A stretch of 64,000 nucleotides of DNA from an uncultured Helicobacter sp. (GCA_965120395.1 CBCPND010000018.1:444-64443), one strand, 5' to 3'; positions 10,391-64,000 are shown, numbered from the stretch's first letter. Numbers and translations are program-made. Notes: generated by a model not told the origin, from the sequence alone.

Positions 10391-10515
10391 GCAAAAAAAG
10401 GCACAAAAAAATATCGATAATCATTAGGTTAAGAAATTAGGAACTTAACGCTACTTCATAGGATTTTAGCCATAATCCAAACCACCTATTAGAATTCTAG
10501 ATTCTATAAAATTGG

Positions 10516-11568
10516 ATGAAAATGACCTTTTATTTCCTTAAGCGCATTTTGTTGATAATTCCCACACTTCTAGGCATCATCACGCTTAATTTTTTCATCA
10601 TCCAGTTAGCTCCCGGCGGTCCAGTAGAGCACATCACAAGCAAACTCGAGCAAGGCACACATAGCGAAGCAAGCAGTGGCACTAAAATAAGCGATTATAA
10701 AGCTTCAAAAGGACTTGATGTAGAACTCATAGAGGAGCTTAAAAGACAATATGGCTTTGATAAAAGCATAACTGAGCGCTACATTTTAATGCTTAAAAAT
10801 TACCTTACCTTTGAGCTTGGCGAGAGTTATTATCGAAAGATTAGCGTGTGGGATTTGATTTTAGAGAAGATGCCTGTTTCTATTTCTTTGGGGCTTTTTA
10901 GCACATTGCTCATTTATCTTATCTCAATTCCGCTTGGAATCTATAAAGCGCAGAAAAATGGCAGCACGCTAGATTCTATATCTTCGCTTATTATTGTTGT
11001 GCTAAATGCCATTCCGGCGTTTTTGTTTGGGATTTTGCTTATTGTGCTTTTCGCGGGTGGAATCTATTTGGATATTTTTCCATTGCGAGGATTAACAAGT
11101 GATGACTTCGCGCAAATGGGCTATTTTGATAAGATTAAGGATTATCTCTGGCACATTACTTTACCGGTGTTGTGCTTATCTATAGGTGGCTTTGCCACGC
11201 TCACATTACTAAGTAAAAATTCTTTTTTAGAAGAAATGCACAAAGGCTATGTCTTAACTGCCTATGCAAAAGGCGCGAGCAATCAGCGCGTGCTTTATGG
11301 GCATATTTTTAGAAATGCAATGTTGCTTGTGATCTCTTCATTTCCTGCGGCGTTTTTAGGGATTTTCTTAAGTGGAAGCTTGATGATTGAGATTATTTTT
11401 AGCTTGGATGGTTTGGGGCTTTTGGGGTATCAGAGTATTTTAGATCGCGATTATCCAGTCGTCTTTGGCACGCTTTATATTTTTACGCTTTTTAGCCTAA
11501 TTATTGCTGTGGTAAATGATTTTGTTTATACACTAGTTGATCCTAGAATAAATTTTGAAGCGCAGTAA
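10516..11568 (+). CDS. yejB: Peptide/opine-family ABC transporter permease, YejB-like
   Basis: Near-collinear similarity by eye to E. coli YejB (..LAPGGPV.., ..YGFDK.., ..DYLWHITLPVL.., ..FRNAMLLVI.., ..DYPVVFGTLYIFTL.., ..LVDPRI.F). ATG 10522 is an alternative start. Confidence 0.85.
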   Translation: MKMTFYFLKRILLIIPTLLGIITLNFFIIQLAPGGPVEHITSKLEQGTHSEASSGTKISDYKASKGLDVELIEELKRQYGFDKSITERYILMLKNYLTFELGESYYRKISVWDLILEKMPVSISLGLFSTLLIYLISIPLGIYKAQKNGSTLDSISSLIIVVLNAIPAFLFGILLIVLFAGGIYLDIFPLRGLTSDDFAQMGYFDKIKDYLWHITLPVLCLSIGGFATLTLLSKNSFLEEMHKGYVLTAYAKGASNQRVLYGHIFRNAMLLVISSFPAAFLGIFLSGSLMIEIIFSLDGLGLLGYQSILDRDYPVVFGTLYIFTLFSLIIAVVNDFVYTLVDPRINFEAQ

Positions 11569-11630
11569 TTTTAAGTATTTTTTAATTATTTTTATCATAA
11601 ATATTATCCATTTTATTTTAAGGAGCACAA

Positions 11631-12707
11631 ATGCAAAAAAAAATTAGACAGCTTTTATCACAAGTGATATATCCAAATTTTCAAAAAGACATTGTAAGTT
11701 ATGGATTCGTGAGTGAAATCCTCATTAATGATAACAATATAGAAATTTTCATCAATATCCCTTCTAGCGATCCTAAAGTGGCAAAAGCACTTTATGATAA
11801 AATAGACAGGGTTTTGCAAAAAGAAAACATCATTGCCAAAATTCACATTCAAGCCCCAACCCCACAAACTCCACCCAAACCAAAGCCAAAAAACCTAGCC
11901 CCACAAATCAAGCATTTCATAATGGTAAGCTCTGGCAAAGGTGGTGTAGGCAAATCAAGCGTAGCGACAAACCTCGCCATAGCACTTGCGATGCAAGGAA
12001 AAAGCGTTGGAATCTTGGATGTGGATATTTATGGACCAAATATTCCGCGTATGTTTGGCGTGCATAATCAAAAACCAAAGCTAGATTCTAGTGGCAAAAA
12101 GCTTATTCCGTTAAATGCCTTTGGCGTTGATATTATGAGTATGGGCGTTTTGTTTGAAGAGGGGCAGAGTCTCATTTGGCGTGGTCCTATGCTTATGCGC
12201 GCAATTGAGCAGATGTTTAGCGATGTGGTTTGGAGGGAACTTGATGTGATGGTTTTAGATATGCCACCCGGAACTGGTGATGCGCAGCTTTCAATCGCGC
12301 AAAATATCCCAGTAAGTGCTGGAATTGCCGTAATGACGCCTCAGCAAGTAAGCCTTGATGATGGAGCGCGAAGTTTAGATATGTTTGAAAAGCTAGATAT
12401 TCCGATTGCTGGGGTCATCGAAAATATGAGTAGCTTTGTGTGCCCAAATTGCAATGAAGAATATGATATTTTTAGCAAAGGTGGCAGTGCACCGCTTGCT
12501 AAAAAATATAACACTCAGATTCTAGCTCAGATTCCGCTTGAGAAGCAAATCCGCGAAGGCGGTGATAATGGGCAGCCGATTGTGTATTTTAACCCAGAAT
12601 CTAAAAGCGCAAAAGAATTTATAAAAGTCGCTATTGAAACATTAGAATTCTTACAAAAAGTAGAAAAGGAAAATCTAGCAGATAACTCCTCCATCCAGCC
12701 ACAATAA
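11631..12707 (+). CDS. apbC: Fe-S cluster carrier ATPase Mrp/ApbC
   Basis: Deviant Walker A SGKGGVGKSS and a CPNC motif. N-terminal DUF59-like domain. 358 aa. Confidence 0.9.
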   Translation: MQKKIRQLLSQVIYPNFQKDIVSYGFVSEILINDNNIEIFINIPSSDPKVAKALYDKIDRVLQKENIIAKIHIQAPTPQTPPKPKPKNLAPQIKHFIMVSSGKGGVGKSSVATNLAIALAMQGKSVGILDVDIYGPNIPRMFGVHNQKPKLDSSGKKLIPLNAFGVDIMSMGVLFEEGQSLIWRGPMLMRAIEQMFSDVVWRELDVMVLDMPPGTGDAQLSIAQNIPVSAGIAVMTPQQVSLDDGARSLDMFEKLDIPIAGVIENMSSFVCPNCNEEYDIFSKGGSAPLAKKYNTQILAQIPLEKQIREGGDNGQPIVYFNPESKSAKEFIKVAIETLEFLQKVEKENLADNSSIQPQ

Positions 12708-12725
12708 GTGCTTAAAGCACTTATT
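12705..12725. terminator. Hairpin between convergent apbC and lctP (bidirectional terminator candidate)
   Basis: ATAAGTGC-TTAAA-GCACTTAT, an 8-bp stem that overlaps the apbC stop codon. Confidence 0.45.
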
Positions 12726-12733
12726 GATATAGA

Positions 12734-14449
12734 TCAATTAGGCATAATCCACGGAAACCAAAACGCCATAGCATAAGTGAAAAATCCTACAATAATCACA
12801 AGTGCCACAGAATATTTCGCTGTAAATCTAAACAACTCAGATTCTCGCCCAACCAATCCAACGGCTGCACACGCAATAACTATACTTTGGGGGGAAATCA
12901 TTTTGCCAATGACGCCACCCACGCAGTTTGCTGCCAAAAATAATATATCAGAAATACCAAGTTTGTTTGCTGTAAGTTGCTGAAGTGTTCCAAAAAGAAT
13001 ATTTGAACTCGCATCACTTCCTGTCAAAAATACACCAAGCCATCCCACAATAGGAGAGAAAAATACGAACGCTTCACCTGTATTTGCAAGTGCTAATGCT
13101 AAAGTTGCTAATATACCGCTGTAATTTGAGATGTATGCAAATCCTACAACCAAAGAAATCGTCAAAATAGCAAATTTCATTTCATTGAGTGTCTCACCAA
13201 ATGTCTTAACTGCTTCTGTAATTTTTACCTTAAGTAATACCATAGTAATTAATGCAGCAATAAAAATTGAAGTGCCTACAGTATTGATTAGAGGCAAATC
13301 AAATAATGATTTCATAACCTTATTCTCTCGTGCAACTTCTGTAGTTTGGATAATGCTACCAAGTTCGCTAAAATTAATCTGTAAAACAAAAGAATTTAAG
13401 ATTCCAGCTTCTTTGATAAGCTCCATTTCTCCGTTTGCATTTGTGCCATATTGTGCTGATGCAAATAAATCTTTAAACCAATCTTGAGTCCAAATTACAA
13501 TCATAAAAATCAAAATTATAAAAGGCATCCAAGCTAAAATAATTTGCTTTGTGGAATATTTCTTGCCCTGCGATATATCGCTATCCACAGAGGCATTATT
13601 TTCAAATTTAAAAATATTTTTTGGTTGCCAAAAGCGTAAAAATACTGCCACGCAGACAATCGATGTAATTGCTGATAAAACGCACAATTCTGGTCCAAGG
13701 CGTGTGGCTGTGTAATACTGCACAATAGTAAAACTTCCTCCAGCTACTAAAGCCACAGGCCAAGTTTCTTTGAGTCCTTTAAGACCATCCATTAAGAAAA
13801 TCAAGAAAAATGGAACAAGCACCGAAAGTGGAGCGAGCATATGCCCTACCATTGAGGAAATTTTAAGCGCATATTCGCTTGTGCTAAATCCTGCTGTATC
13901 CACAACTCCAGCCATAGCAATAATAGGAATCCCCACAGCTCCAAAAGCAACTGGCGCGGTGTTGGCAATCAAACAAAGTCCCGCTGCATACAATGGTCTA
14001 AGTCCAAGTCCAACTAAAAGAGCCGCAGTAATAGCAACGGGACCACCAAAACCAACCGCACCCTCTAAAAACGCACCAAAACAAAATCCAATCAAAATAA
14101 CTTGAATCCGCTGATCTGGCGTGATAGCAATGATAGATTCTCGCAGAATATCAAAATAGCCCGATTTAACTGTAAGCTTGTAAAGAAAAATTGCTGCAAT
14201 TATAATCCAAGCAATAGGCCACAGCCCATACAGCGCACCAAACAAAAAGCTATAACCTACTTTTGATGCAGGCATACCATAAACAAATATCGCAATTAGT
14301 GCTGTTAGAATAACAGTGAGCAATCCTGCCGTATATCCCTTTAGCTTAAATACAATTAATGAAACAAAAAACAAAACAATTGGCAAACACGCTACTAACG
14401 CGCTTAACCATCGATTATCAAGTGGATTATATACCTGTGTCCATTCCAT
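12734..14449 (-). CDS. lctP: L-lactate permease
   Basis: 571 aa polytopic protein. The N-terminus (W.Q.Y.P....LSALVA.LPI) and overall sequence match the LctP/LldP family. Confidence 0.9.
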   Translation of the reverse strand: MEWTQVYNPLDNRWLSALVACLPIVLFFVSLIVFKLKGYTAGLLTVILTALIAIFVYGMPASKVGYSFLFGALYGLWPIAWIIIAAIFLYKLTVKSGYFDILRESIIAITPDQRIQVILIGFCFGAFLEGAVGFGGPVAITAALLVGLGLRPLYAAGLCLIANTAPVAFGAVGIPIIAMAGVVDTAGFSTSEYALKISSMVGHMLAPLSVLVPFFLIFLMDGLKGLKETWPVALVAGGSFTIVQYYTATRLGPELCVLSAITSIVCVAVFLRFWQPKNIFKFENNASVDSDISQGKKYSTKQIILAWMPFIILIFMIVIWTQDWFKDLFASAQYGTNANGEMELIKEAGILNSFVLQINFSELGSIIQTTEVARENKVMKSLFDLPLINTVGTSIFIAALITMVLLKVKITEAVKTFGETLNEMKFAILTISLVVGFAYISNYSGILATLALALANTGEAFVFFSPIVGWLGVFLTGSDASSNILFGTLQQLTANKLGISDILFLAANCVGGVIGKMISPQSIVIACAAVGLVGRESELFRFTAKYSVALVIIVGFFTYAMAFWFPWIMPN

Positions 14450-14516
14450 AAAAGCTCCTTTAGCAATAGTGAAGCTATTCTAGCAAAAAAAATCTAAAAA
14501 TAATTCTTAAATTACA

Positions 14517-15287
14517 TTATTGCTCTTGGATTTCTTGCTTAATTCCCAAAATAAGATGTGAAATATTCGCGCTGTAGCTTTTAATGATCTTTGTTTGGAT
14601 TCCAACTTTAGCAAATTCTTGTGCAAGTTCTTGAGGTGTAAGAAAGCTGTCCATAGAATCTGGTAAATATTTATATGCAGCATAATTTTTAGAAATCACA
14701 CCGCCAATTAAAGGCAAAATATACTTTGTATAAAAGCTTGTGATGTAATCAAGCAAGCTTGGATTTTGCTTCTTAAAAAAATCTAAAACGACAATTACGC
14801 CACCATTTTTTAGCACCCTTGAAAATTCGCTAATCGCCTTTTTATATTCCACCACATTGCGCAATCCATATGCAATGGAGAGAATATCTACGCTATTAGA
14901 TTCTATCATCTCAAGATTCTGAGCCTGCCCGACAAAAAGATTTATATCTTTTGATTCTTCATCACTCGATTTGATGTCTTTAAGCTTGGTTTTTGCCACT
15001 TCAAGCATTTTGATAGATGGATCAACGCCAATGATAGAATCTGTAGCGATATTGTGTTTTTTGGCTTGGATTTGCCAATGTAAAATCATATCTCCAGTGC
15101 CACAAGCCACATCTAAAATGCGCTCAATTTTATTTTTTTGCAGTGCTTCAAAAGCTCTTTGGCAAGCATTAATGCGCCAAGAAATATCAATGCCAAGACT
15201 CAAGATTCTATTAGCCTTATCATAATCTTTGGCAATCGCATCAAACATCTCAACAATTTGGCTTTGTTTGTCCATTTGTTTATTCAT
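14517..15287 (-). CDS. ubiE: Demethylmenaquinone/ubiquinone C-methyltransferase UbiE/MenG
   Basis: MFDAIAKDYDKAN..., SAM motif VACGTGDM, and the LRNV motif. Start trimmed to MNKQMDK (AAGGAC RBS) so it does not overlap argH. Confidence 0.85.
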   Translation of the reverse strand: MNKQMDKQSQIVEMFDAIAKDYDKANRILSLGIDISWRINACQRAFEALQKNKIERILDVACGTGDMILHWQIQAKKHNIATDSIIGVDPSIKMLEVAKTKLKDIKSSDEESKDINLFVGQAQNLEMIESNSVDILSIAYGLRNVVEYKKAISEFSRVLKNGGVIVVLDFFKKQNPSLLDYITSFYTKYILPLIGGVISKNYAAYKYLPDSMDSFLTPQELAQEFAKVGIQTKIIKSYSANISHLILGIKQEIQEQ

Positions 15288-15321
15288 CAGCGTCCTTTGT
15301 GATATTTTGCAATCCTCCTTT

Positions 15322-16701
15322 TTATGCCGTATTGAGCCATTGTTGCAGAATCTTAATTTGCTCTTTTGTTTGTGTGCTTGAAGTGCCACCAAAGCTATCT
15401 CTAGATTCCATAGAATGCACCAAATCCAAAGCTTCTTTCACGCCATTTTTTATTAAAGGATCAAGTCTTAGAATCTCTTCTTCGTCAAGCTCGCTAATAT
15501 CGCAATTTTTAGATTCTGCGTAAGCTACGATCTTGCCTGTGATATGATGTGCTTCGCGGAATGGCACGTCTGAGCTTTTTACCAAGAAATCCGCTAAATC
15601 AGTCGCACTTAAATGCCCCATTTTGCAAGCTTTAGCCATATTATCAACATTGATTTGCATTGTTTTTAAAACCTGCTTTAAAATCTCAATGCTTATTAGA
15701 ATATTCTCAACGCTATCAAACACAGCTTCTTTATCCTCTTGTGTATCCTTATTATAAGCTAATGGCAATGATTTCATTACAACTAAAAGTCTAGTCAGAT
15801 TCCCAAAAAAACGCCCACTTTTTCCACGTAAAAGTTCTGGCACATCGGGGTTTTTCTTTTGGGGCATAATCGAACTTCCTGTAGCATAATCATCACTTAT
15901 TGTGATGAATTTAAACTCATAGCTACTCCATAGCACTAGTTCTTCAGCAATGCGCGAGAAATGCATCCCAATCATCGCAATGTCATACAGCAAATCAAGT
16001 GCGAAATCTCTATCACTCACAGAATCCATCGCATTAAGCGTAGGTGCGCTAAATCCAAGCTCATCACTCAACATCTCACGATCATTTTTATAGGGTGTGC
16101 CAGCAAGCGCTCCAGAACCTAAGGGCATAAAATTATTGCGAGAAAAACTAGATTCTAGCCTCTCTATATCGCGCTTTAGTGCGCAAGCCCACGCCACAAG
16201 ATGAAAGCCAAAATTTACAGGTTGTGCGTGTTGAAGATGGGTCATTCCGGGCATAAGCGTTTTGGTGTGTTTATCTGCAATTTGTAGAATCTCGGCTATA
16301 AGATCCATTAAGCCTCGTTTGATTTGAATAATTTTATCAAGCACATATAATCTGAAATCAAGTGCTACTTGATCGTTTCTGGAGCGCGCAGTATGAAGCT
16401 TTTTCCCCACATCGCCGATTTTTTGCGTCAGACGCGCTTCAATTGCCATATGAATGTCTTCATCACCTATGTTAAACTCAAATTTACCTGCTTTGATTTC
16501 TTCTTCTATCTCAAGCAAACCTTGTTTGATTTTAGTATATTCTGCATCGTCTAAAATATTTAGCTTATGAAGCATTTTAGAGTGTGCTAGCGAACCTAAA
16601 ATATCATAAGGATACAAAATATAATCAAATCCAATTGAAGCATTAAACTTCTCTAAAAGCTCACTAGAATCCGCGCTAAATCGACCGCCCCAGAGCTTCA
16701 T
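15322..16701 (-). CDS. argH: Argininosuccinate lyase
   Basis: MKLWGGRFS... N-terminus and the [12 protein letters not shown] signature loop. 459 aa. Confidence 0.95.
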
Positions 16702-16708
16702 ATCATCC

Positions 16709-17164
16709 CTAAAATTTAATGACTGCGCATATCACAATAACAATCATTAAGATTGTTGGTATCTCATTAAAAAATCTAAAAAACTTATGACTAATGGAGC
16801 ACGAATCATTTTGCATTTTTGTTACTATTATTCCACATACGATATGAAAAATCAGCATAAGAACAGTAAATAGCACTTTAATGTGAATCCACATCCCGCT
16901 TCTAAAAATATCTGGGAACATTATCCATATCAATAATCCTCCACTACCTACACTAAACCACATAGATGGACGCATAATATAAACAAAAAGTCTATATTCT
17001 TGAAGTTTTACGACACTAGTAAAGGCTTCATTGCCATAATTAAGCGCGTGATAAACAAAAAGCCTTGGCAGATAAAAAAGCCCAGCCATCCAGCAAATCA
17101 CACTTATAATATGCAGTGTCTTAATCCACGAATAATACTCCATTAGCCACTCTGCAAATTCCAT
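16709..17164 (-). CDS. hemJ: Protoporphyrinogen IX oxidase HemJ-type (UPF0093) membrane protein
   Basis: 151 aa, 4 TM segments. W.K..H...[16 protein letters not shown] motif typical of HemJ. Confidence 0.7.
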
Positions 17165-17207
17165 TTTCTCTCCTTTTTAAAACTTCACTACTTATTTTAC
17201 CTTCATT

Positions 17208-18356
17208 TTACTTTAATATTGGTAAAAACTCAAAAAGTGTAATCTCAGAAGTAGAAAAACTTCTCATAGGCGGACCCCAGAATCCCGCACCTTCATTGAC
17301 ATAAATATATGTGCTCGTCTCTGGAATCTTATGCAAACCTTTTAAATAAGGCTGTTGCAAAAGCACAGCTAAAGAAATCGGGAAAATTTGCCCGCCGTGC
17401 GTGTGTCCAGCAAGAATAAAATCAATCTTTTGCAAAAGGGCAGAATCTAGAATGTTTATAACTTTTGGCTGATGGGTTAGGAAAATTACAGGCAAGTTTG
17501 CATTTATATTTTTTAATGATTTGTTAAAATCTGGCTTTAAAAAGCCCATTCTATTGCCCATTAAATCCGCGCTTCCAGCGATATTGATCATATCTTTAAT
17601 CTCGATATTTTCATTGATAAGCACTTTAAAGCCAAGTGATTTTATAGATTCTATGATCTCATAAATATCGTGGATATACTCGTGATTACCAAGCACATAA
17701 TACACGCCATATTTCGCGCACAAATTACCCAGAATCTGCAAACTCGCTTTTGAATTTTCTAAACTTGAATCTATTAAGTCGCCTGTGATTGCGATTATAT
17801 CTGGATTTTGCGCATTGCTTAAAGAGACGATTCTAGCCACGCGCGCTTCATCCATAAGTCCGCCGATGTGAATATCGCTTAATTGCAAAACCTTAAGAGG
17901 TTTGCTAAGCTTGTTAAGCTCAGAACTTATATGCCTAATCTTTGGCTCTGATAAGCCATTATACAGCGTATAAAAACCATAAATAAAACAAAAAGCTAGA
18001 ATGTAACGCTTAAGTTTTGGCTTTAGATGCTGCTTTTGTAAAATCCAAAATGCCAAACTCACGCAACTTGCGATAATTGCCCCAACCAAAAGCATAAACA
18101 TCAAACCAACGCAAATAGAAGCGATCATAAACGCCCATTTTGGTGCAAACTCATAACTTCGCATAAACATATAAAGCACGCTAAAAATCATATTTATAAA
18201 TAAAATCGTGTTAAGAAATCGCGCTATAATCTTGCTTGATGAGACCTTACGCACTAAAAGCATATAAACAATCAAATGTAACACGATAAATAATAAAGAT
18301 CCTAAAAACGGAAATAAAAAGCTTTGCATCTGCGCAAATTGCGGTGTATCATCCAT
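17208..18356 (-). CDS. Membrane-anchored metallophosphoesterase
   Basis: N-terminal TM segments followed by calcineurin-like motifs LSDIHIG, GDLID, GNHE and GHTHGGQ. Confidence 0.85.
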   Translation of the reverse strand: MDDTPQFAQMQSFLFPFLGSLLFIVLHLIVYMLLVRKVSSSKIIARFLNTILFINMIFSVLYMFMRSYEFAPKWAFMIASICVGLMFMLLVGAIIASCVSLAFWILQKQHLKPKLKRYILAFCFIYGFYTLYNGLSEPKIRHISSELNKLSKPLKVLQLSDIHIGGLMDEARVARIVSLSNAQNPDIIAITGDLIDSSLENSKASLQILGNLCAKYGVYYVLGNHEYIHDIYEIIESIKSLGFKVLINENIEIKDMINIAGSADLMGNRMGFLKPDFNKSLKNINANLPVIFLTHQPKVINILDSALLQKIDFILAGHTHGGQIFPISLAVLLQQPYLKGLHKIPETSTYIYVNEGAGFWGPPMRSFSTSEITLFEFLPILK

Positions 18357-18426
18357 TGATATTCCTCATTTTAGATTCTGTAATGCTATCAAAATATCTT
18401 TAATTTTTGTGCCTCTTATTTTCCTC

Positions 18427-18457
18427 TTGACTTAGAGTAGCTCTTATATTCTATAAT
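18427..18457 (+). promoter_or_regulatory. Promoter candidate TTGACT-N19-TATAAT upstream of 18483
   Basis: TTGACT at 18427-18432 and TATAAT at 18452-18457. AGGAGG RBS at 18471-18476. Confidence 0.35.
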
Positions 18458-18482
18458 TCACAAATCTTTTAGGAGGTTTTAT

Positions 18483-18917
18483 ATGAGCTTCTTGAAAGTA
18501 TTTCTTATTGGAGTGAGTTTTCTAGGAGGTATGGCAATGGCAGAAGAGATAAAAATAATATTAGAGCTTGAGAGTGAAAGCATCAAGGTGGCATTAGAGA
18601 ATAATGTCGCTTCAAGGGAATTTGTAGCGCAGCTTCCATTAGAACTAGAATTTAGCGATTATGTAGGTAAAGAAAAAATTGCTCATTTACCAAAGGCTTT
18701 AAGCGTGAAAAACACCACAGGCTATGATCCGCAAGTTGGGGATTTTTTCTACTTTGCTCCGTGGGGGAATCTTGGAATCTATTATGCTAAACAACCGCCA
18801 TATAAAGGGCTTGTATATCTTGGCAAGGTTTTGGATTCTAAGAGTGGGAAAAATGGCATAGAGATTATAAAGAACATAAAAAAGGATTTTAGAGTGAAAT
18901 TAAGTCGGGGTGATTAG
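18483..18917 (+). CDS. Secreted cyclophilin-like-fold protein (hypothetical)
   Basis: Signal peptide. The motif ..GDFFYFAPWGNLGIYY.. is typical of the cyclophilin-like domain family, recognised by eye. Confidence 0.55.
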   Translation: MSFLKVFLIGVSFLGGMAMAEEIKIILELESESIKVALENNVASREFVAQLPLELEFSDYVGKEKIAHLPKALSVKNTTGYDPQVGDFFYFAPWGNLGIYYAKQPPYKGLVYLGKVLDSKSGKNGIEIIKNIKKDFRVKLSRGD

Positions 18918-19892: not shown

Positions 19893-20027
19893 CTTATATG
19901 GCTCCTTATAAAGAATTATTTTACATTGATAGCAGTTTTTATTAAGTAAAACAAAAAATCATATAGCGATATATCGTCATTTTTAGATACAATTATCCTT
20001 TTTATAACAGAAATTTTAAGGGCAAAT

Positions 20028-20603: not shown

Positions 20604-20624
20604 GTTTTAAGATTCTAAAAATTG

Positions 20625-56220: not shown

Positions 56221-56234
56221 AAATCTCTCCTCAA

Positions 56235-57458
56235 TCAATAAAAACTTAATTTTGCCCCACGCAATCCAATAAACTGCTGTGTTGGGCATACTCTTTTTCC
56301 TGCCTTTGCATTCATATCAAGCTCTTTAAAAATCGCATTAATATCAACTTGCATCAAATCCCTCTCTCCTAAACCATAAATATAACTATTTAAAATTGGC
56401 TTATTTGGATTCTCTAGCTGATATAAAGCAGCTGAAACTTCATTAAATAAAGCTCCCATTGCACCAGCAGGCAAACTCTTATCCATAATACCTACAGCTT
56501 TAATGTTTTGAAGAGCTTGTGCCACCTCTGCATATGGGAATGGTCGCAAAACTTTAATGCCAACTACACCGGCTTTAATATTTTCTTTACGCATATTATC
56601 TGCAGCAACCATAGCGGATTCTACACTTGTCCCAATAGCTAAAAGGGCTACATCTGCATCCTCTATTTTGTAAGTTTGCACAAGTTTATGTTCTCTTCCT
56701 GTAAGTTTTTTGAATTCTTCAAATACACTCTGGATTGTCTCTTTTGAATGCATTAAAGCGTTATGAAGCTGTGCTTTATGCTCATAGTGCCACTCCTCTT
56801 CTGCTTGCGCCCCATAAGTCACTGGATGTTCAAAGTCTAAAAGAGGACTTTTAATTTTATACTCGCCAATAAACTTATAAGCCTCATCATCTTGTAGAGG
56901 GCGCACATTCTGTGCTGTATGTGAACACAAGAATCCATCCTGATTAACAATAACAGGCAAACGCACATTCATATCTTCTGCGATTTTAAATGCCATAAGA
57001 TTCAAATCGTAAGCATCTTGAGGATTATATGCACACAAGTTAATCCACCCAGCATCTCGCCCAAGATACATATCCGAATGATCTCCATGTATATTTAAAG
57101 GGGAAGCTAGGGCTCTATTAACAAGATTTAGCACGATTGGAAGACGCATACCTGAAGCTTGATATAATACCTCAATCATTAGGGCAAATCCTTGAGAACT
57201 TGTAGCAGTAGCAACTCTTCCACCAGCAGCAGCTGCACCTACACAAGCACTCATTGCTGCATGCTCAGATTCTACAAGCACAAACTCACCATCAATATAA
57301 CCATTACCTACAAAAGTCCCATAATTTTGAACTATTGGTGTTGATGGAGTAATAGGATAAGCAGCAACAACATCAATTTGAGCCTGCCTCATAGCTTGAC
57401 ATGCTGCAGTATTTCCATCCCACACTACAACTTGATCTAATTCCATAGTCTTTGCCAT
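56235..57458 (-). CDS. porA: Pyruvate:ferredoxin oxidoreductase alpha subunit
   Basis: 407 aa. ..GN.A.A.A......V.AAYPITPST.. N-terminus. Confidence 0.9.
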   Translation of the reverse strand: MAKTMELDQVVVWDGNTAACQAMRQAQIDVVAAYPITPSTPIVQNYGTFVGNGYIDGEFVLVESEHAAMSACVGAAAAGGRVATATSSQGFALMIEVLYQASGMRLPIVLNLVNRALASPLNIHGDHSDMYLGRDAGWINLCAYNPQDAYDLNLMAFKIAEDMNVRLPVIVNQDGFLCSHTAQNVRPLQDDEAYKFIGEYKIKSPLLDFEHPVTYGAQAEEEWHYEHKAQLHNALMHSKETIQSVFEEFKKLTGREHKLVQTYKIEDADVALLAIGTSVESAMVAADNMRKENIKAGVVGIKVLRPFPYAEVAQALQNIKAVGIMDKSLPAGAMGALFNEVSAALYQLENPNKPILNSYIYGLGERDLMQVDINAIFKELDMNAKAGKRVCPTQQFIGLRGAKLSFY

Positions 57459-57461
57459 TGC

Positions 57462-57854
57462 TTACTCCTTATTCTTTGCTTCTTTAGCAGGCCATTTTGC
57501 CAATGCATCAGAATTTTCTTCATAATTACTAAACATCAATAATGACTTGGGGTTTGTAGGACATACTTCAACACACACGCCACAGCCTTTGCAATGCACA
57601 TAATCAACGCCTGTAAGTTTCTCATTACGCGCTAAAATCGCACCATCAGGACAATAAACCCAACAATTAAAGCAATTAATACAAACATCGCTATTATGCA
57701 CAGGCTTATTGATCCGCCAATCTGCCACACTTGTTCCAAATGAACTTTCTTTAGTATAACTACGCTCATCATTGTGCTTACACAATGACTCTAATCCATT
57801 TTCTTCAAATGGAAAAAGCGCAGCACCTATTTCTAATTCGCTCCAACCTTTCAT
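57462..57854 (-). CDS. porD: Pyruvate:ferredoxin oxidoreductase delta subunit (2x[4Fe-4S])
   Basis: CINCFNCWVYCP and CKGCGVCVEVCP cluster motifs. Confidence 0.9.
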   Translation of the reverse strand: MKGWSELEIGAALFPFEENGLESLCKHNDERSYTKESSFGTSVADWRINKPVHNSDVCINCFNCWVYCPDGAILARNEKLTGVDYVHCKGCGVCVEVCPTNPKSLLMFSNYEENSDALAKWPAKEAKNKE

Positions 57855-57880
57855 ATCTTTTCTCCCTTATTTTCTTAATT

Positions 57881-58441
57881 TTATTTTACCTCATCATATG
57901 CGCGCTGGATTGCCTGCATATTTGCATCAATTATTGCTTGTGGTAACTTTTTACCTAAAACCTTTGTAAAAGCCTTTTTAAAATACTCAAGCTCCAAGAT
58001 TCCAGAAATCTTTACAAAAGCCCCAAGCATAGGCGCATTTGGGATTGGCTTGCCAATCGTATCAAGCGCGATTTGAATACAATCAAGAGTGTAGAGATTT
58101 TTCCCATTTAGTTCTGGCTTTTTCTCGCAAAGCTCTTCTTTGCTCATATGTGTGGTTATAATGTATTTGGTATCTTTTTTTTCATTTACGCAAATATCCG
58201 TAATAAACACAAGCCCAGGGTCAATCACTAGCACATAATCAGGCTCCATAAACTTTTCGTGATTTAAAATTGGCTTATCATCGATTCTGTCATACGCACT
58301 CATCGCCGCTCCTCGCTTTGCTGAACCATATAACGCAAAAGCCTGTACTTCTTTTCCAGTGGTTGCAATTACATCAGCGAGACCTTTTGCGCCTGTAACT
58401 GCACCTTGTCCAGCGCGAGAATGCCACCTAATCTCTAGCAT
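57881..58441 (-). CDS. porG: Pyruvate:ferredoxin oxidoreductase gamma subunit
   Basis: MLEIRWHSRAGQGAVT.. N-terminus, typical of POR gamma subunits. Confidence 0.9.
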   Translation of the reverse strand: MLEIRWHSRAGQGAVTGAKGLADVIATTGKEVQAFALYGSAKRGAAMSAYDRIDDKPILNHEKFMEPDYVLVIDPGLVFITDICVNEKKDTKYIITTHMSKEELCEKKPELNGKNLYTLDCIQIALDTIGKPIPNAPMLGAFVKISGILELEYFKKAFTKVLGKKLPQAIIDANMQAIQRAYDEVK

Positions 58442-58556
58442 TATTTCTCCTTTCTCTCCTAAATTTCATAAGGATTTTACGCCTTTTTCTATAAAACAAA
58501 TCTTAAAGAAAAATCTCGAATAGTAAATTTTGTAAGATATAGTATTTTTGTAACAT

Positions 58557-59288
58557 TTATGCTAGATTCTGGATATACTCCACTGCCCTATAGGCATTAT
58601 CAAAGCTTAGAGGCGCTATCTCATCGAGATTCTCACCAAATCCATTTCTCACCCAGATTCCATTCACACCAGCATTTTTAGCCGCTTGCAGATCATAAAT
58701 CGTATCGCCTATCATATAGACTTTTTCTTTAGGTGTGATGGGAAAAAAATCAAGTGCCCTTAAAATCGGCTCTGCGTGTGGTTTGGGCGCACTTACATCT
58801 TCTCTTCCAATAATCACTTGAAAATATTTTAACATTCTAAGATTCTTTAAAATCTGCTTCGAATATAAAAGTGCCCTTGAGGTAATAATGCCAAGATGCG
58901 CAAAACTATGCGCCAAAACCACAGCCTCTTTTGCTTGTGGCAGTAATTTTGTCTTATCTACACAGATTCTACGATAGTGATTCTTGTAGCGCTCCACACG
59001 CCTTTGCAGCTCATCATCATCAAAACCAACGCGCCTAAACATATCCTCTAAAGGCAATCCTATCAATCCACGCACTTCTTGAATACTCGGAAAATACTCG
59101 TCTTCACAAGCCCTGCTAAAACTCTCATAAATCCCATCCACAGAATCTAAAAGCGTGCCATCTAAATCAAAAAGAATGATTTTCTTCTCGTGCGCTCCAC
59201 TCTTATCGCTCCTTGCAGAATCCTTATTTGTAGATTTTGCATTTGTAGATTTTGAAGGTATTATTTTATCCTTAAGCCAGCGCATCAT
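58557..59288 (-). CDS. HAD-superfamily hydrolase (phosphoglycolate phosphatase-like) with unusual N-terminal extension
   Basis: DLDGTLLDS (motif I), ..ITS.. (motif II), ..GD...D (motif IV). The start is uncertain (M20/M21 of the ORF-track call) and overlaps the MATE gene 3' end. Confidence 0.75.
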   Translation of the reverse strand: MMRWLKDKIIPSKSTNAKSTNKDSARSDKSGAHEKKIILFDLDGTLLDSVDGIYESFSRACEDEYFPSIQEVRGLIGLPLEDMFRRVGFDDDELQRRVERYKNHYRRICVDKTKLLPQAKEAVVLAHSFAHLGIITSRALLYSKQILKNLRMLKYFQVIIGREDVSAPKPHAEPILRALDFFPITPKEKVYMIGDTIYDLQAAKNAGVNGIWVRNGFGENLDEIAPLSFDNAYRAVEYIQNLA

Positions 59289-60675
59289 TTCTTCTCCTTT
59301 TCCATAAGATTCTACCACTTTGGACACTTCCTGAGAATATTCCAAACTTCACTTCATAAGCCATCACACAAAGTGCGATAACAAGCGCACAAATCTGTGA
59401 TAAAGGATAAGCAATCCACGCACCATTTATGCCGTATTTATAACTCATAAATGGCAAAATCACAGCCAAAAATAAAATTGTATAGCAAATCGTTATGATA
59501 AATGAGCTTGCTGTGCGCTGCACGGATTGTAAGAATATCGCACAAACCATATTCACACCCAAAATAATATAGCCAAGATAATACACACTTATCGCTGCAA
59601 TCGTCTCATCCAAAAGTGCAGTAGTTTTGATATCATTCTTTAAAAACATCCCCACCAAATACGAATCAAAACAATAAAATACTCCATACATAAAAACCCC
59701 CATAAGCACAACCATAAATAGTGAAAATCTAAAAATCTGCCTTAAGCGCGTAAAATTTCCCGCACCATAATTAAAGCTAGCCAATGGTTGCATAGCCTGC
59801 GTCACTGAAAGCAAAATCGTGAAAAATACAATCCCACAATACATCATAATGCTATAAATTTGCAAGCCTTTTTCCCCAGCGATGCTTAATAAAATCGCAT
59901 TAAAAAGCAGCATCACAATTGATGCTGAAACTTCAGATACGCTCTCTGGGATTCCGGTTTTCGCAGAAGAGATAATCGCGGGAAGCGAAAAGCGCCACAC
60001 AAAATAAAGTTTGCCACTTTTACCGATAAAATGCACAAACAAAATTACAAACCCAATAAAATGCGCCAACAAAGAAGCTAGCGCGCTTCCTTGGATTCCC
60101 ATATCAAGCTTGAATAAAAAGATATAATTTAAAATAATATTGCTCCCAGAACCGACAATCATCGAGAAAGTCGCAAGAATCGGACGCTTATCATTCACGA
60201 CAAAAATATCACTCAATGGATGCAAGATAAAAAAAGGCGCACCAAGAAAGATTATTTTAAAATAAGTTAGGGCTAAGGATTTTATCTCTTGGATGTTTTT
60301 ATTTGCTTCATTTTTAATGAGTAAATCCACAATCTCGCTTGCAAACAAAAATCCCACAACACCGATAATCACAGAACTTATAGTCACAAAATAAAAAATT
60401 GAGCTAAATACCAATCGCGCACGATGCGTGGCATTTTTACCTAAAAAATACGACACAATAGCCGCCCCGCCAAATCCAAAAAGTAGCTCAAAAGCAATAA
60501 AGGCGGGAAATATGGGCCAGCAAATCCCAATAGCCGCCAATCCATTCTCTCCTATTTTTTTACCGACAAAAATCCCATCAATAGTGGAATATGTAGAAAG
60601 CGCAAGCATAGCGCAAAGTGCGGGAATGAAGTAATAAAAAAATAATTTAATAACAGAATCTTTCTTAAGATCCAT
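59272..60675 (-). CDS. MATE-family efflux transporter
   Basis: 467 aa, 12 TM segments. N-terminal ..P......L......DG.FVG..G...LAA.. pattern. Confidence 0.8.
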   Translation of the reverse strand: MDLKKDSVIKLFFYYFIPALCAMLALSTYSTIDGIFVGKKIGENGLAAIGICWPIFPAFIAFELLFGFGGAAIVSYFLGKNATHRARLVFSSIFYFVTISSVIIGVVGFLFASEIVDLLIKNEANKNIQEIKSLALTYFKIIFLGAPFFILHPLSDIFVVNDKRPILATFSMIVGSGSNIILNYIFLFKLDMGIQGSALASLLAHFIGFVILFVHFIGKSGKLYFVWRFSLPAIISSAKTGIPESVSEVSASIVMLLFNAILLSIAGEKGLQIYSIMMYCGIVFFTILLSVTQAMQPLASFNYGAGNFTRLRQIFRFSLFMVVLMGVFMYGVFYCFDSYLVGMFLKNDIKTTALLDETIAAISVYYLGYIILGVNMVCAIFLQSVQRTASSFIITICYTILFLAVILPFMSYKYGINGAWIAYPLSQICALVIALCVMAYEVKFGIFSGSVQSGRILWKRRRNDALA

Positions 60676-60723
60676 TTTTCTCTCACTAGATTCTGGCGCA
60701 AAATAGCCAGAATCTTATCTTTG

Positions 60724-61113
60724 TTATCTTTTAGAGAATTGCGGGCTTCTTCGTGCCTTTCTTTTTCCGTATTTTTTGCGCTCAACAACACGAGAATCCC
60801 TAGTCAATAGTCCTTTTGGCTTTAAAATCGCGCGAAATGCGATATCATAAATATTCAATGCCTTTGAAATTCCGTGCCTTAAGGCTTCAGCTTGAGCCGA
60901 ATAGCCACCACCAAATGTAACCGCTTTAATATCAACAGATTTTTCTTGCTTTGTCAAAACCAAAGGCTGCATTACCTTTTTCTTAATTGCCTCGTGTCCG
61001 CCAAGCCATTCATCAAGGCTCATATCATTGATAATAAGCTTGCCTTTTCCGCTATTTAGCCAAACTTTTGCTATTGCTGTTTTTCGCTTTCCTGTTGCAT
61101 AAACTTTTGCCAT
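60724..61113 (-). CDS. rpsI: 30S ribosomal protein S9
   Basis: ..ATGKRK.AIA.V.., C-terminal ..RKKYG..KARR.PQFSKR. Confidence 0.97.
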
Positions 61114-61122
61114 TTGATACCT

Positions 61123-61542
61123 TTATTTTTTGATTTGAGCGGTGTGAGGATGCTCACTGCCTGCATAAACTTTAAGCTTTTTAATCATAACTCGACCTAA
61201 TTTTGTTTTTGGCAACATTCCTCGCACAGATAGGTAATAGAGCTTTTGAGGACATTTTTCCAACATTTCTTGAAGGGTTTTGGATTTTGTGCTACCAAAA
61301 TAACCAGAATGTGTAAAATATCTTTTGTCTTGTAACTTCATCCCAGAGAATTTCGCTTGCCCTGCATTAATAACAACAACAAAATCTCCACAATCTGCAT
61401 TTGGTGTAAAGCAAGGCTTATGCTTTCCACGCAAAAGCGTGGCAATCTCAGTGATTAGCCGACCAAATGTTTTATCTTTCGCGTCAATGAGATGCCATTG
61501 GCGAGTAACCTCGCTTGCTTTGATTGATTTTGTAATATCCAT
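61123..61542 (-). CDS. rplM: 50S ribosomal protein L13
   Basis: ..W.LIDA....GRL...IA..LRGKHKP.FTP..D.GD.V.VINA.. Confidence 0.97.
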   Translation of the reverse strand: MDITKSIKASEVTRQWHLIDAKDKTFGRLITEIATLLRGKHKPCFTPNADCGDFVVVINAGQAKFSGMKLQDKRYFTHSGYFGSTKSKTLQEMLEKCPQKLYYLSVRGMLPKTKLGRVMIKKLKVYAGSEHPHTAQIKK

Positions 61543-61686
61543 AAATATCCCTTAAGTAAATTTCATTCTGCACAGATGCACACGACATCTGCACGTTCCG
61601 TTCAATGACCACTAAAAGTCAAAATTTTACCTTATGGACTCTTATACTTATCTTAAAACTTATATCTTAATTAAATTAAAAGTATT

Positions 61687-61971
61687 TTAAGCAACCAGAA
61701 TCTCGCTTAAGATACTTTGTAATCCCTCTTTGTCTATCTCATCGCTTGCCACAGCCACTACAACATCTTCTAGCCTTTCGTAAAAATCCTCTCTTAAAAG
61801 CTCAAGGTAATTTAATTCTATAAAAGCATCTGCAAGGTAAATAACACTGCGTTTATTGCCATCTAAGAATAGATGAAATTTCACACAAGCAAAGATTAAG
61901 TGAGTAAGCTTATCTAAAAAGCTAGGATAAAGCTCATCATAAGGTTGGTGATAATTAGAATCTATGCGAAC
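61687..61971 (-). pseudogene. N-terminally truncated Doc/Fic-family toxin remnant
   Basis: The stop-to-stop frame encodes ..VKFHLFLDGNKRSV.., matching the Doc motif HxFxDGNKR. There is no ATG, only GTG at 61884. About 40-50 N-terminal residues are missing and no antitoxin ORF lies upstream. Confidence 0.6.
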
Positions 61972-62049
61972 TTATCACAAGCTAGAACCTAGGCATTAAA
62001 GTAAGTTTTGGCAACCATTGCTTAATTAAATCTTAGATCGCTTTAGATT

Positions 62050-64000
62050 CTACTCTAGCAAGAATTCATATTCATAGATTTTAGGCTTTATCTTTTGAGC
62101 TAGATTCTCTAGTTCATAACGCAAGTTTGCCATTAAGTCATTAAAGTGAGAATCTAGACTTCTTGCGTTCATTTTGCTCTTATCATTTTGGCTTTTAAAT
62201 CCTTGAAAATAGCCTTTGATGTCATAAAGAGAGGCATTTGGATTGTAGGTTTTATAAAATTCATCGTTATGCTGGGCGTGGATTTCTAGGATTTCTCCAA
62301 AGTTTTGATGATAGTATCTCCACACTTCGCGCCCCGCATCAAACACAGCCTTAGATTCTTTACTAAATTCTAGTGGCTTAGTTGGGATAAAGCTTTGCTC
62401 TTTTATCAAGCTAGTGCTTATGGAATCTGCCTTAATCTTGCCATTGATAAATTGATACATAAAATGAGATTCAAAAGCTTCTCTAGCCATCACTTCTTTT
62501 TCGCTAAATGAGATAAAGTGATTTGTACCATATTGTGATTGTATATTATTGTTAAAAAGAGTGAAAGCTAAACTGTCATTTTGGAATTCCACATCATCCT
62601 GCCATTTATCATTTGGATGCAAAAATTGGTCTCTGTCATTCAACCAAGTTTTTGGTATGCTTTTTCTTACTGCAAAATATACACAAGCATATACAAGATT
62701 CTGTGGATTTATTAAAAATTGTCCAGCAGCTACATTATATAGCATATTAATATGATTAATTTGTATCATATTGTTATTTTGAAAGTCATTTCCCTTAAAA
62801 GGAAATTTTCCTAAAAGGTTTTTATCATCTTTTTTTGCTCTATATGGTTTTATCCACTCATTAATGTAGTGCTTATTTTCTAAAACATAAATATTTTTTC
62901 TTCCTATAAATTCCGCACTGTCTTTGGTTTTTTCATACGCATTTGCTGTAAATGTTTTAAATTCTTCTTTTACTTTTGTATCCCAAATGAAAAAACCAAT
63001 AGGAAATTCTCCAGAGACATTATCAAATGTATTTGAAGGAACTATAAATAATTCTAAAAGTTTTGCTTTAAAAAATTTTCTAAAATCTATAAAATGCTGT
63101 CCTTGCACAATTTTCAACTTTGAAAATTGTGCAAGGGTGCAATCTGGAATCTCTTTATAAATTCTTGTAAAAAATTGTATAAATAATTCTCTGTTACCTT
63201 GTCCTAAATCCTGTGCATATATTGTATTAATTATTGATTGTTCAACTGCCACCTTGCCTGCTTTGCCCAAACCTGTTGGAGCTTCTGCATATGGTGGATT
63301 TATGTAAATGATTAGCTTTTGACGCTCTTTAGGATCTTTTAAAATTTTGATTAAAGTTTGTGGAATCTTTGTATTTTTCTCATCAAAATTACAGCAATTA
63401 AAGCATCCATCTTGCCTTTCTTTATGAATCACGCAAGGCAATGGATCGTTAAGAAAGTCAAACTGAAAAATATGACTTTTAAGCAAGGTTTTATCGCCAT
63501 ATAAATCAAGCATAATATCAACATCGCTTTTATCAAGCGTAGAAGCAAAGATTCTGTATTTTTCACTAAGCCCTACTAAAAGATTCCCAGTCCCTGCCGC
63601 ACAATCCCAAATGTAATATTCCTCTTGATAATCCTCGCCTAAAGCGTTTTGTAAATATTCTTGAGATTTTCTAACCCAAACTTGTGGCGTGAAAAACGCT
63701 CCCTTACGCTCTCTAATATCCACAGGCACAAGCAAATCCCTACGCTCTAAAATATAATCCCAAAACTCCTCTTTAGGCGGTCGTTCATAGATATTCCAAA
63801 ATTGATTATGGGCTTTTTGGTTGTCGGTGAAATTTACATCGATATATGTAGCAAAAAGTTGGCTACCTTTCTTGATGTATTCATCTTTAACTTTGTAAAA
63901 AGTCTTTTTCAATAGGATTCTTAGGTTTTGCTTTATTTCTTGTGTCGTGTTATCAATGCTTAAAATATCTGCAAGGTAAAAATCAGAATCTAATATTCTA
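62050..64000 (-). CDS. N6-adenine DNA methyltransferase domain protein (gamma-class; 5' end beyond window edge)
   Basis: GAFFTPQ (motif X), WDCAAGTGNLL (motif I) and NPPY (motif IV), followed by ~400 aa of unknown, TRD-like sequence. The frame upstream of the TTG at 63912 has no stop through position 64000. Confidence 0.8.
   Translation of the reverse strand, partial: RILDSDFYLADILSIDNTTQEIKQNLRILLKKTFYKVKDEYIKKGSQLFATYIDVNFTDNQKAHNQFWNIYERPPKEEFWDYILERRDLLVPVDIRERKGAFFTPQVWVRKSQEYLQNALGEDYQEEYYIWDCAAGTGNLLVGLSEKYRIFASTLDKSDVDIMLDLYGDKTLLKSHIFQFDFLNDPLPCVIHKERQDGCFNCCNFDEKNTKIPQTLIKILKDPKERQKLIIYINPPYAEAPTGLGKAGKVAVEQSIINTIYAQDLGQGNRELFIQFFTRIYKEIPDCTLAQFSKLKIVQGQHFIDFRKFFKAKLLELFIVPSNTFDNVSGEFPIGFFIWDTKVKEEFKTFTANAYEKTKDSAEFIGRKNIYVLENKHYINEWIKPYRAKKDDKNLLGKFPFKGNDFQNNNMIQINHINMLYNVAAGQFLINPQNLVYACVYFAVRKSIPKTWLNDRDQFLHPNDKWQDDVEFQNDSLAFTLFNNNIQSQYGTNHFISFSEKEVMAREAFESHFMYQFINGKIKADSISTSLIKEQSFIPTKPLEFSKESKAVFDAGREVWRYYHQNFGEILEIHAQHNDEFYKTYNPNASLYDIKGYFQGFKSQNDKSKMNARSLDSHFNDLMANLRYELENLAQKIKPKIYEYEFLLE

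Follow-up and report, generated by a model that had tools for sequence, protein, structure and literature searches.

The hyper-abundant word AGAWTCT in enterohepatic Helicobacter: anatomy, turnover and a possible role as a self-DNA tag

The stretch of DNA considered here (hereafter the window) comprises 64,000 bases (37.3% G+C) from an uncultured Helicobacter sp., with a prophage at one end and, over the remainder, chromosomal genes that include por, fmt, birA, parAB, the atp operon, exbBD-tonB, tolB-pal, hypF/hypE and the gene for tmRNA, a content and order that we take to be typical of Helicobacter. Our subject is a palindromic seven-base word, AGAWTCT (i.e., AGATTCT and its reverse complement AGAATCT), which is hyper-abundant in the window, both within and between genes. 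This assignment is supported by the AtpD protein of the window, which is 91% identical to that of Helicobacter sp. 13S00482-2 and 86% identical to that of H. pylori. Of four window proteins looked up by exact identity, three had no record, and exact matches to the window proteins were obtained only from metagenome contigs (ENA ERZ250393xx, Logan ERR142442xx) and from one metagenome-assembled genome (MAG) at NCBI (GCA_964498435.1). Separate assemblies of the same species, which are 97.0-99.95% identical, have an equal density of AGAWTCT; since these assemblies are independent, the excess of the word is not an assembly artefact.

Abundance and anatomy of the word

An exact count gives 152 copies of AGAWTCT in the window, 85 as AGATTCT and 67 as AGAATCT, and so bears out the figure of about 150 given in a first-pass annotation of this DNA, as well as its statement that the A- and T-centred forms are not skewed (the top-strand split of 85:67 does not differ significantly from parity; p = 0.17). 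The ten-fold over-representation estimated by eye in that annotation also holds: 100 dinucleotide-preserving shuffles of the window produced 14.62±3.73 copies and never more than 24. Markov models of orders 0 to 5 predict 13.5, 14.0, 17.0, 32.8, 67.8 and 145.8 copies, such that the excess persists at the two orders recommended as a check, being 4.6-fold at order 3 and 2.2-fold at order 4. The approach of the high-order expectation to the actual count arises because such models are trained on the 5- and 6-letter sub-words of AGAWTCT, which are themselves inflated in the window (AGAATC occurs 230 times and AGATTC 206 times, vs. 43.9 expected for each).

Neither the encoded proteins nor their codon usage can generate this number of copies. 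When synonymous codons were shuffled within each of the 59 host genes, a procedure that preserves both the protein sequence and the codon usage, we obtained 25.9±4.5 copies (maximum 38) vs. 134 observed; shuffling the order of codons yielded 14.5, such that amino-acid order alone lifts the expectation from 14.5 to 25.9. Among the tripeptide contexts in these genes that could encode AGAWTCT synonymously, 134 of 266 actually do so. The word occupies all three reading frames (12, 49 and 78 copies in frames 0, 1 and 2) and is oriented without preference relative to the gene strand (70:69), its commonest coding contexts being x-Asp/Glu-Ser and Lys/Glu/Gln-Asn/Ile-Leu. It is likewise present between genes, where 12 copies were found vs. 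0.53 expected (a 23-fold excess in 2.9 kb of host intergenic DNA, shuffled within segments); a separate count over the 3570 bp of host sequence that is non-coding gave 13, and all eight intergenic examples listed in the first-pass annotation are real copies (Table 1). The annotation had argued, from the use of every frame and of both strands and from the intergenic copies, for a force acting on DNA rather than on codons or amino acids, and had named a few codon pairs, with no intergenic excess, as the alternative. The synonymous shuffle, the intergenic excess, the use of all frames and both orientations, and the orthologous alignments described below all uphold the argument, and the first two of these are incompatible with the codon-pair alternative. 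Dipeptides of the type [DE]S are slightly more common in the window proteins than in their orthologues (49 vs. 42 and 48 vs. 35), but the shift in frequency of [DE]S and [KEQ][NI]L relative to orthologues is small and not significant, and we make no claim that AGAWTCT has reshaped proteins. The hyper-abundance of the word is confirmed, and what lies behind it is almost certainly a lineage-wide drive or selection at the level of DNA.

The limits of the word were defined with a logo built from all 325 GAWTC sites of the window, oriented by their central base. Position -1 is A in 71% of sites and G in 17%, and position +1 is T in 63% and C in 21%, such that the form RGAWTCY accounts for 76% of all GAWTC sites; preferences at -2 (T, 47%) and +2 (A, 42%) are weak, with relative entropies of at most 0.12 bits, and beyond these positions there is essentially no information. 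We compared 20 distinct one-letter variants of the heptamer (exchange of the central A and T returns the word itself) and found enrichment only for transitions at the outer positions, i.e., GGAATCT/AGATTCC (4.7-fold) and AGAATCC/GGATTCT (6.1-fold), vs. values near expectation (0.4-1.9-fold) for variants inside the GAWTC core. AGASTCT is not enriched in the window (3 copies vs. 4.8 expected), which narrows the core of GANTC originally proposed to GAWTC. No neighbouring word is strongly depleted (the observed/expected ratios of AGAATTT and AAAATCT are 0.70 and 1.87, respectively), and there is hence no signature resembling that of very-short-patch repair. The two flanks contribute independently, both preferred flanks occurring together in 152 copies vs. 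the 145.8 expected from the two 6-mer counts. The extended form TAGAWTCTA is enriched 37-fold in the chromosomal part of the window; CTAG itself occurs at expectation (observed/expected = 1.0), and the remark in the first-pass annotation that this tetramer is usually avoided in bacteria is wrong for this genome.

The GAWTC core is presumably a site for a Type II methyltransferase, corresponding to the specificity of TfiI (GAWTC) and contained in that of HinfI and M.HpyAIV (GANTC). A restriction-modification system with GANTC specificity is documented in H. pylori (PMC4917963). In summary form, the word is (T)R-GAWTC-Y(A), with A...T preferred as the immediate flanks, a strict core and graded flanks; this fits an all-or-none reading of the core combined with an additive preference for the flanks, which is the pattern that Elhai described for the highly iterated palindrome HIP1 of cyanobacteria (PMC4390886).

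Distribution, turnover and dialects

Copies of AGAWTCT are sparser in the prophage than in the chromosome (0.88 vs. 2.66 per kb; p = 2e-4), as the first-pass annotation had claimed, and the segment that it considered to be a phage island (1-9620) contains exactly 8 copies. Two corrections apply. The boundary is not at 9620, since homology to a contig from a strain lacking the prophage stops at position 10226, near which the boundary must lie; and sparse is a relative term, in that the prophage is itself enriched 4.9-fold (9 copies vs. 1.8 expected). The prophage end of the window varies among strains. On a strain contig, a further 9.6 kb of core genes have 3.1 copies per kb (observed/expected 13.0), and non-coding DNA is richer in the word than coding DNA (3.6 vs. 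2.6 per kb).

The highest densities were encountered in degraded genes. On contig ena:ERZ25039387:k87_76867, which represents another strain, the DNA adjoining the point where homology stops (window 10226) is an island (L088 14209-21500) that carries a Type IIG restriction-modification gene split into open reading frames (ORFs) of 108/213/297/482 amino acids together with a PLD-SNF2 anti-phage gene (PLD-helicase) split into ORFs of 156/202/544 amino acids; the methyltransferase part of the Type IIG gene exists as an 829-amino-acid version in another strain. This decayed island contains 40 copies of AGAWTCT in 7.3 kb (5.5 per kb; observed/expected 15.9; p = 1.4e-4 vs. the chromosome), with 14 of them in a single fragment of 1.45 kb. 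Density thus declines from decayed defence genes to intergenic DNA, to genes and finally to the prophage, an order that follows freedom from constraint and time of residence. By contrast with such dense stretches, the longest interval free of AGAWTCT, over the TPR protein gene, pal and tolB, may be due to chance or may be a recent import from a lineage without the word. The positions of these and other features of the window are collected in Table 1.

Table 1. Features of the 64,000-base window and the copies of AGAWTCT associated with them
Feature	Position	Strand	Remarks
Prophage side	1..10226		9 AGAWTCT; 4.9x over expectation (1.8 expected)
Capsid gene	1563-2747		Prophage side
P22-type portal gene	7481-9403		Prophage side
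Chromosomal part	10227..64000		143 AGAWTCT; observed/expected 11.7
Two abutting copies, AGATTCTAGAATCT	22423..22436		Inside glutamate dehydrogenase gene, read directly
Densest stretch	32800..37450		28 copies in 4.65 kb (6 per kb); outer-membrane efflux gene, agmatine deiminase gene, hypF
tmRNA gene, tag peptide ANSANYAPAYARVA	39947-40305	-	AGATTCT at 39876 in spacer beside 3' end
Longest AGAWTCT-free gap, 2.65 kb	41505..44148		TPR (tetratricopeptide repeat) protein gene, pal, tolB
Intergenic AGAWTCT copies	9811, 10499, 18373, 19286, 20610, 21094, 30707, 34521..34527, 39876, 55192, 61957, 62045, 63985		

To compare orthologous positions, a check that the first-pass annotation had advised, we used codon-level alignments of 18 genes with their orthologues from Helicobacter sp. 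13S00482-2, which is the nearest genome, and from H. pylori. At aligned window sites, AGAWTCT is present in only 1 of 31 cases in Helicobacter sp. 13S00482-2 (30 of the 31 sites are not the word) and in 0 of 30 in H. pylori, and at 12 of the 31 sites the same tripeptide is encoded by different codons, in one instance through a change of Ser from AGC to TCT. Several other sites depart from a peptide common to both outgroups (LEA to LES, KSL to KNL, EDL to ENL and LPS to LDS). Creation of these sites required transversions and multi-base recoding, and the orthologous codons align without indels. Helicobacter sp. 13S00482-2 has 11 copies of the word in 21 kb (2.2-fold) and H. pylori has one (0.2-fold). 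Because the nearest HypF is just 52% identical, there is no intermediate outgroup with which to polarise gains and losses, and a probe of genome contigs with HypF retrieved no relatives.

A contig of H. fennelliae that is syntenic with positions 29-39 kb of the window, and whose proteins are 48-85% identical, also carries the word and made it possible to ask how often two species share a site. In the aligned codons there are 29 sites in the window and 20 in H. fennelliae, of which 6 coincide, vs. about 0.1 expected from shift controls and from a naive calculation. However, 18 contexts are permissive for the word in both species, and within these it occurs in 9 for the window and in 10 for H. 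fennelliae, such that 6 shared sites are to be set against an expectation of 5.0 (Fisher p = 0.64). The permissive contexts are about half saturated in each species (29/52, or 56%, in the window; 20/39, or 51%, in H. fennelliae), and saturation is equally high in contexts unique to one species (20/34 and 10/21, respectively). Since 6 shared positions are observed and 5.0 expected, they are explained by independent saturation and not by conservation of sites. Conservation at orthologous positions, on which Xu et al. relied for HIP1, is therefore lacking both in this comparison and in that with the nearest genome (1 of 31). These patterns indicate that AGAWTCT sites are derived and continually replenished, and are not conserved functional sites.

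Among strains of the window species diverged by at most 0.8%, all 48 of 48 sites are invariant, where about 3 hits would be expected; in comparison with a strain diverged by 3.0%, 31 of 34 sites are kept (about 27.5 expected), with three sites private to each side. Of the polymorphic motif sites, which number five, three have undergone a C/T (G/A) transition at the C of the core. These data are compatible with equilibrium, and the tests, which are not significant and are underpowered for purifying selection, are too weak to say more. Differences among co-occurring strains over window positions 36365-57762 and 10226-24460 are extremely clustered, with a variance/mean ratio of 8-66 per 500 bp (one 500-bp bin contains 78 of 92 strain differences) and with 27 pairs of sites that are incompatible by the four-gamete criterion, although the assemblies are metagenomic and possibly chimeric. 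Such a mosaic indicates either frequent homologous imports or chimeric metagenome assemblies.

The word is not a peculiarity of one genome. We counted it in prophage records related to the window prophage and in chromosomal loci reached through homologues of HypF; the nearest relatives of the window prophage are those of H. cinaedi and H. canis (portal proteins 60-63% identical), and a scan of IMG/VR for its relatives yielded just 26-27% matches. Prophages of H. cinaedi contain AGAWTCT 67 times vs. 8.2 expected (8.2-fold) and 35 times vs. 5.4 (6.5-fold), with the same T-A-GAWTC-T-A logo, and the chromosome contig of H. fennelliae contains it 45 times vs. 2.6 (17-fold; 3.1 per kb). Enrichment is 8.4-fold in Helicobacter sp. 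T3_23-1056 and 3.6-fold in a prophage of H. himalayensis. Other species have dialects. The H. canis prophage combines a 7.6-fold excess of AGAWTCT with CTAGAATC (52 vs. 1.4 expected) and GGATTCTA (33 vs. 1.0), giving the dialect GTGGATTCTAG; on the H. zhangjianzhongii chromosome, which has the consensus GTGGATTCTAG, GGATTCTA occurs 32 times vs. 0.6 expected (14 on the plus and 18 on the minus strand) and GGAATCTA only twice, and the word is in this species truly asymmetric, with a fixed central base. The H. ganmani prophage has 58 copies of GGAWTCC and 25 of GGATTCTA vs. 1.3 expected. GATTCTA is retained in all dialects. In DNA from gastric hosts, i.e., a prophage of H. heilmannii and the H. 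pylori phage KHP30, AGAWTCT is at 1.2-fold in each and GAWTC is under-represented (0.4-0.5-fold). The word, with its dialects, is hence a clade trait of enterohepatic Helicobacter.

Two further features were seen in the same material. The locus of Helicobacter sp. T3_23-1056 is also rich in AATCTA (102 vs. 13.9 expected) and AAAATC (155 vs. 36.8) as well as in unrelated repeated words (GCAATGAC, 41 vs. 0.9) and C-rich runs, and these additional words may reflect either a further dialect or a repeat-rich gene. In prophages of H. cinaedi and H. ganmani, GASTC (GAGTC/GACTC) is strongly avoided (0.1-0.5-fold) and GAWTC is enriched 2.3-2.9-fold in the same records; the avoidance may reflect a GAGTC restriction system of the PleI/MlyI type in those hosts.

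Origin of the excess

The observations call for a symmetric bias at the level of DNA that acts in every class of sequence and is opposed by coding constraint; they also call for a bias that is still active in several species and whose flank specificity can shift between them. Our tentative preference, held at somewhat short of even confidence, is that AGAWTCT marks DNA as self, biasing natural transformation in favour of such DNA, and has accumulated by molecular drive, with the biased step itself being one that we infer. An uptake or recombination signal and a recognition word tied to GANTC methylation were among the candidates that the first-pass annotation listed. Some step in transformation, be it binding and uptake at the cell surface or processing and recombination after entry, would favour fragments that bear the word, which might be read in methylated form, given that its core is a classical site for Type II methyltransferases. 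Upon recombination with the cell's own population, mutations that create the word would be transmitted slightly more often than those that destroy it (a molecular drive of the Redfield type), and the word would climb to an equilibrium set by protein-coding constraint, with roughly half of the permissive contexts filled. At such an equilibrium, pseudogenes and spacers would be richer in the word and recently arrived prophage DNA would be poorer in it. Biased transformation fits well because there are dialects, because the asymmetric dialect occurs in both orientations, and because of the prophage deficit and the mosaic differences among strains. Moreover, H. zhangjianzhongii has a competence gene of the ComEC family (PF03772; L101 5564-6920, minus strand) at a distance of about 3 kb from hypF, and at least this dialect-carrying species therefore encodes the inner-membrane channel for DNA import.

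A number of points weigh against transformation as the source of the bias. The window and about 28 kb of additional contig yielded no uptake receptor, orphan methyltransferase or competence gene, the window has no restriction gene either, and the sole methyltransferase seen is the fragmented Type IIG gene of another strain. A walk along the 120-kb strain contig brought up housekeeping genes and the two decayed defence genes, and nothing else. Natural competence of enterohepatic Helicobacter is undocumented in the literature searched, and our search, which was not exhaustive, returned no relevant literature on AGAWTCT or on uptake sequences in Helicobacter; the model species of the genus, H. 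pylori, reportedly shows no preference as to the source of DNA (PMC10046745). Most of the uptake signal sequences (USS) and DNA uptake sequences (DUS) of other bacteria are, unlike AGAWTCT, asymmetric and longer than seven bases. Spacing of the word is close to random (coefficient of variation 1.10; dispersion index of 1-kb bins 1.44), with no evenness or periodicity detectable in 54 kb, and its density is uncorrelated with gene conservation in 18 functional genes (Spearman rho = +0.33, p = 0.18). The mosaic differences among strains could in part be chimeras produced in metagenome assembly. Finally, a process of biased repair inside the cell predicts almost the same patterns.

Such a process would be a methylation-coupled mutational ratchet, as in Elhai's model for HIP1, in which, alongside a GAWTC methyltransferase, a methyl-directed or very-short-patch-like repair settles mismatches within or beside near-cognate sites to the advantage of the word, leaving AGAWTCT as a by-product without a function of its own. 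It would account for a palindromic core that is a methyltransferase site and for one-off variants that are enriched at the outer positions only (which is Elhai's signature), for sites that turn over and saturate independently in the window species and H. fennelliae, and for higher density in unconstrained DNA; the enrichment already present in the prophage is what one would predict if all DNA resident in the cell were subject to the process, and the transitions at the core C in polymorphic sites point the same way. We nevertheless consider repair an unlikely source: no neighbouring word is strongly depleted, sites have been created by transversions and by multi-base recoding (e.g., of Ser AGC to TCT), a methylation site that is symmetric would not readily give rise to the asymmetric dialect of H. 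zhangjianzhongii, and no methyltransferase was found in the window or the additional contig. It also counts against repair that H. pylori is not known to possess MutS1/MutL/MutH mismatch repair.

An improbable alternative is that AGAWTCT is a selected binding site, either for an abundant dimeric protein that is associated with the nucleoid or organises the chromosome, or for a palindromic, Chi-like regulator of AddAB, and that its density is kept high because the chromosome needs many sites. The two-fold symmetry of the word and the independent contributions of its half-sites would suit a dimer, there would be thousands of sites per genome if the density in the window holds genome-wide, and the near-invariance of sites among strains leans in the direction of constraint; furthermore, selection and a nucleoid role have been argued for HIP1 (Xu et al., PMC5861425), and Kamoku & Nielsen raise the possibility that HIP1 has a Chi-like role. 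But if need set the density, it would not be expected to be highest in dead genes, positions are conserved between the window and H. fennelliae no more than independent saturation predicts, spacing is random, the polymorphism tests are not significant, and a structural need offers no explanation for different dialects in sister species. That the word merely results from codon usage, from the composition of dipeptides or from a dispersed family of short repeats (miniature inverted-repeat transposable elements or repetitive extragenic palindromes) is a reading for which the unequal use of reading frames, the favoured peptide contexts and the contribution of amino-acid order could be cited, but it has next to no chance of being correct: it is refuted by the synonymous shuffle and the intergenic excess, and the equal use of both orientations and the [DE]S dipeptides, which are slightly commoner than in orthologues, also speak against it. 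Dispersed repeats and mobile elements in particular, and with them the repeat-generating process that the first-pass annotation had listed as a candidate, are ruled out by the logo, which contains no information beyond ±2, and by the gap-free alignment of orthologous codons, in which sites have arisen through point substitutions.

Relation to other abundant words

AGAWTCT belongs to a known class of hyper-abundant short words, of which HIP1, USS/DUS and RAATTY are members; what is new is the word itself, the clade, the dialects of its species and its presence in cultured human pathogens. The closest parallel is provided by HIP1 (GCGATCGC) and the alternate HIPs of cyanobacteria (Elhai 2015, PMC4390886; Xu et al. 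2018, PMC5861425; Kamoku & Nielsen 2024, 10.1101/2024.09.10.611283). Both are short palindromes enriched at least 10-fold independently of frame, both within and between genes; in both, an internal site for a Type II methyltransferase is flanked by the first and last positions, at which one-off variants occur (RGAWTCY in the present case), and lineages have alternate words; and the function of HIP1 is likewise debated among biased repair, nucleoid structure and transformation. Methylation of HIP1 raises cyanobacterial transformation up to 100-fold (Kamoku & Nielsen 2024), and in a preprint of 2026 the abundance of HIP1 is tied to the presence of genes for type IV secretion. AGAWTCT differs in its occurrence in Campylobacterota, in being AT-rich and of odd length with a W at its centre, in its density (2.7 sites per kb vs. 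about 1 per kb for HIP1; PMC4390886), in having one asymmetric dialect, in the absence of a methyltransferase tied to it within the window and the additional contig, and in positions that are not conserved beyond saturation, whereas Xu et al. (PMC5861425) report conserved HIP1 sites. To the debate over HIP1 it thus contributes a pattern that fits continual replenishment rather than conserved sites.

A second parallel lies within the same phylum. Campylobacter jejuni is cited (in PMC10046745 and 10.1101/2024.09.10.611283) as taking up only DNA methylated at RAATTY by CtsM; this word too is palindromic and AT-rich, coincides with a methyltransferase site and serves as a self tag for natural transformation. 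RAATTY is, however, a 6-mer that is so common that its enrichment is modest, and the dependence of uptake on it was established by experiment. The USS of Pasteurellaceae and the DUS of Neisseriaceae resemble AGAWTCT in several respects: they occur at about 1-3 copies per kb, in both orientations and in every coding frame, are constrained by coding, and have dialects in related species; and, as with AGAWTCT, they are dense in core genes and depleted in recently acquired DNA. Within Helicobacter, the gastric species sampled have neither the word nor a dialect of it. USS and DUS are explained by uptake bias and recombination (i.e., by molecular drive), as we propose for AGAWTCT, but they are asymmetric, span 9-12 bases and are recognised in unmethylated form, through a receptor that is either known or inferred; the main Helicobacter form is a palindrome of 7-9 bases, and only the GTGGATTCTAG dialect of H. 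canis and H. zhangjianzhongii is USS-like in form. In E. coli, very-short-patch repair enriches CCWGG and depletes CTWGG, with an effect below two-fold. This resembles the present case in that a methyltransferase site is over-represented, there through biased repair beside it, but the excess of AGAWTCT is 10-fold and lacks the specific depleted neighbour seen in E. coli. Polar words of the Chi or KOPS (FtsK orienting polar sequence) type are recognised by strong skew between replication strands, which AGAWTCT, being a palindrome that presents the same site on both strands, does not have; the asymmetric dialect of H. zhangjianzhongii is likewise divided 14 to 18 between the strands.

Hyper-abundant short words are rare, and USS, DUS, HIP1 and Chi have each brought to light a mechanism by which DNA is taken up, recombined or repaired. 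A sequence tag in the intestinal relatives of the source-indifferent H. pylori would change the view of barriers to gene flow in Helicobacter, and since AGAWTCT is common to H. cinaedi and H. fennelliae, both of them cultured pathogens, the matter lends itself to direct test. Inclusion of the word in constructs might ease the genetic manipulation of species that are poorly tractable, and the word and its dialects supply a strong compositional marker by which contigs and prophages of Helicobacter could be binned and assigned to hosts in metagenomic data. A broader proposition, which we regard as doubtful, is that enterohepatic Helicobacter, including H. cinaedi and H. fennelliae, possess an unrecognised form of self-DNA recognition for transformation that relies on the GAWTC-core signal AGAWTCT, possibly methylated, with GTGGATTCTAG and GGAWTCC as dialects, and that this is the same phenomenon as the words TTGGCCAA, TACATGTA, TAAATTTA and AGCGCGCT of other Campylobacterota. 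If true, such words would form a phylum-wide barcode linking recognition of the restriction-modification type to DNA uptake.

The words just mentioned came from the other loci sampled. A locus from an Epsilonproteobacteria MAG has the palindrome TTGGCCAA at 12 sites (0.64 expected), and one from an Arcobacter MAG has TACATGTA at 8 sites (0.45 expected), a word that likewise ranks first in Campylobacterota MAG135. In the H. heilmannii prophage, AGCGCGCT is found 32 times vs. 2.0 expected when both strands are counted, corresponding to about 16 sites. All three of these palindromes have restriction-site-like cores. Among the loci sampled, only those from Campylobacter are enriched for AAATTT (2.1-4.9-fold), which is one form of RAATTY, and for TAAATTTA (6-9-fold); the GAATTC form of RAATTY is not enriched in the Campylobacter loci.

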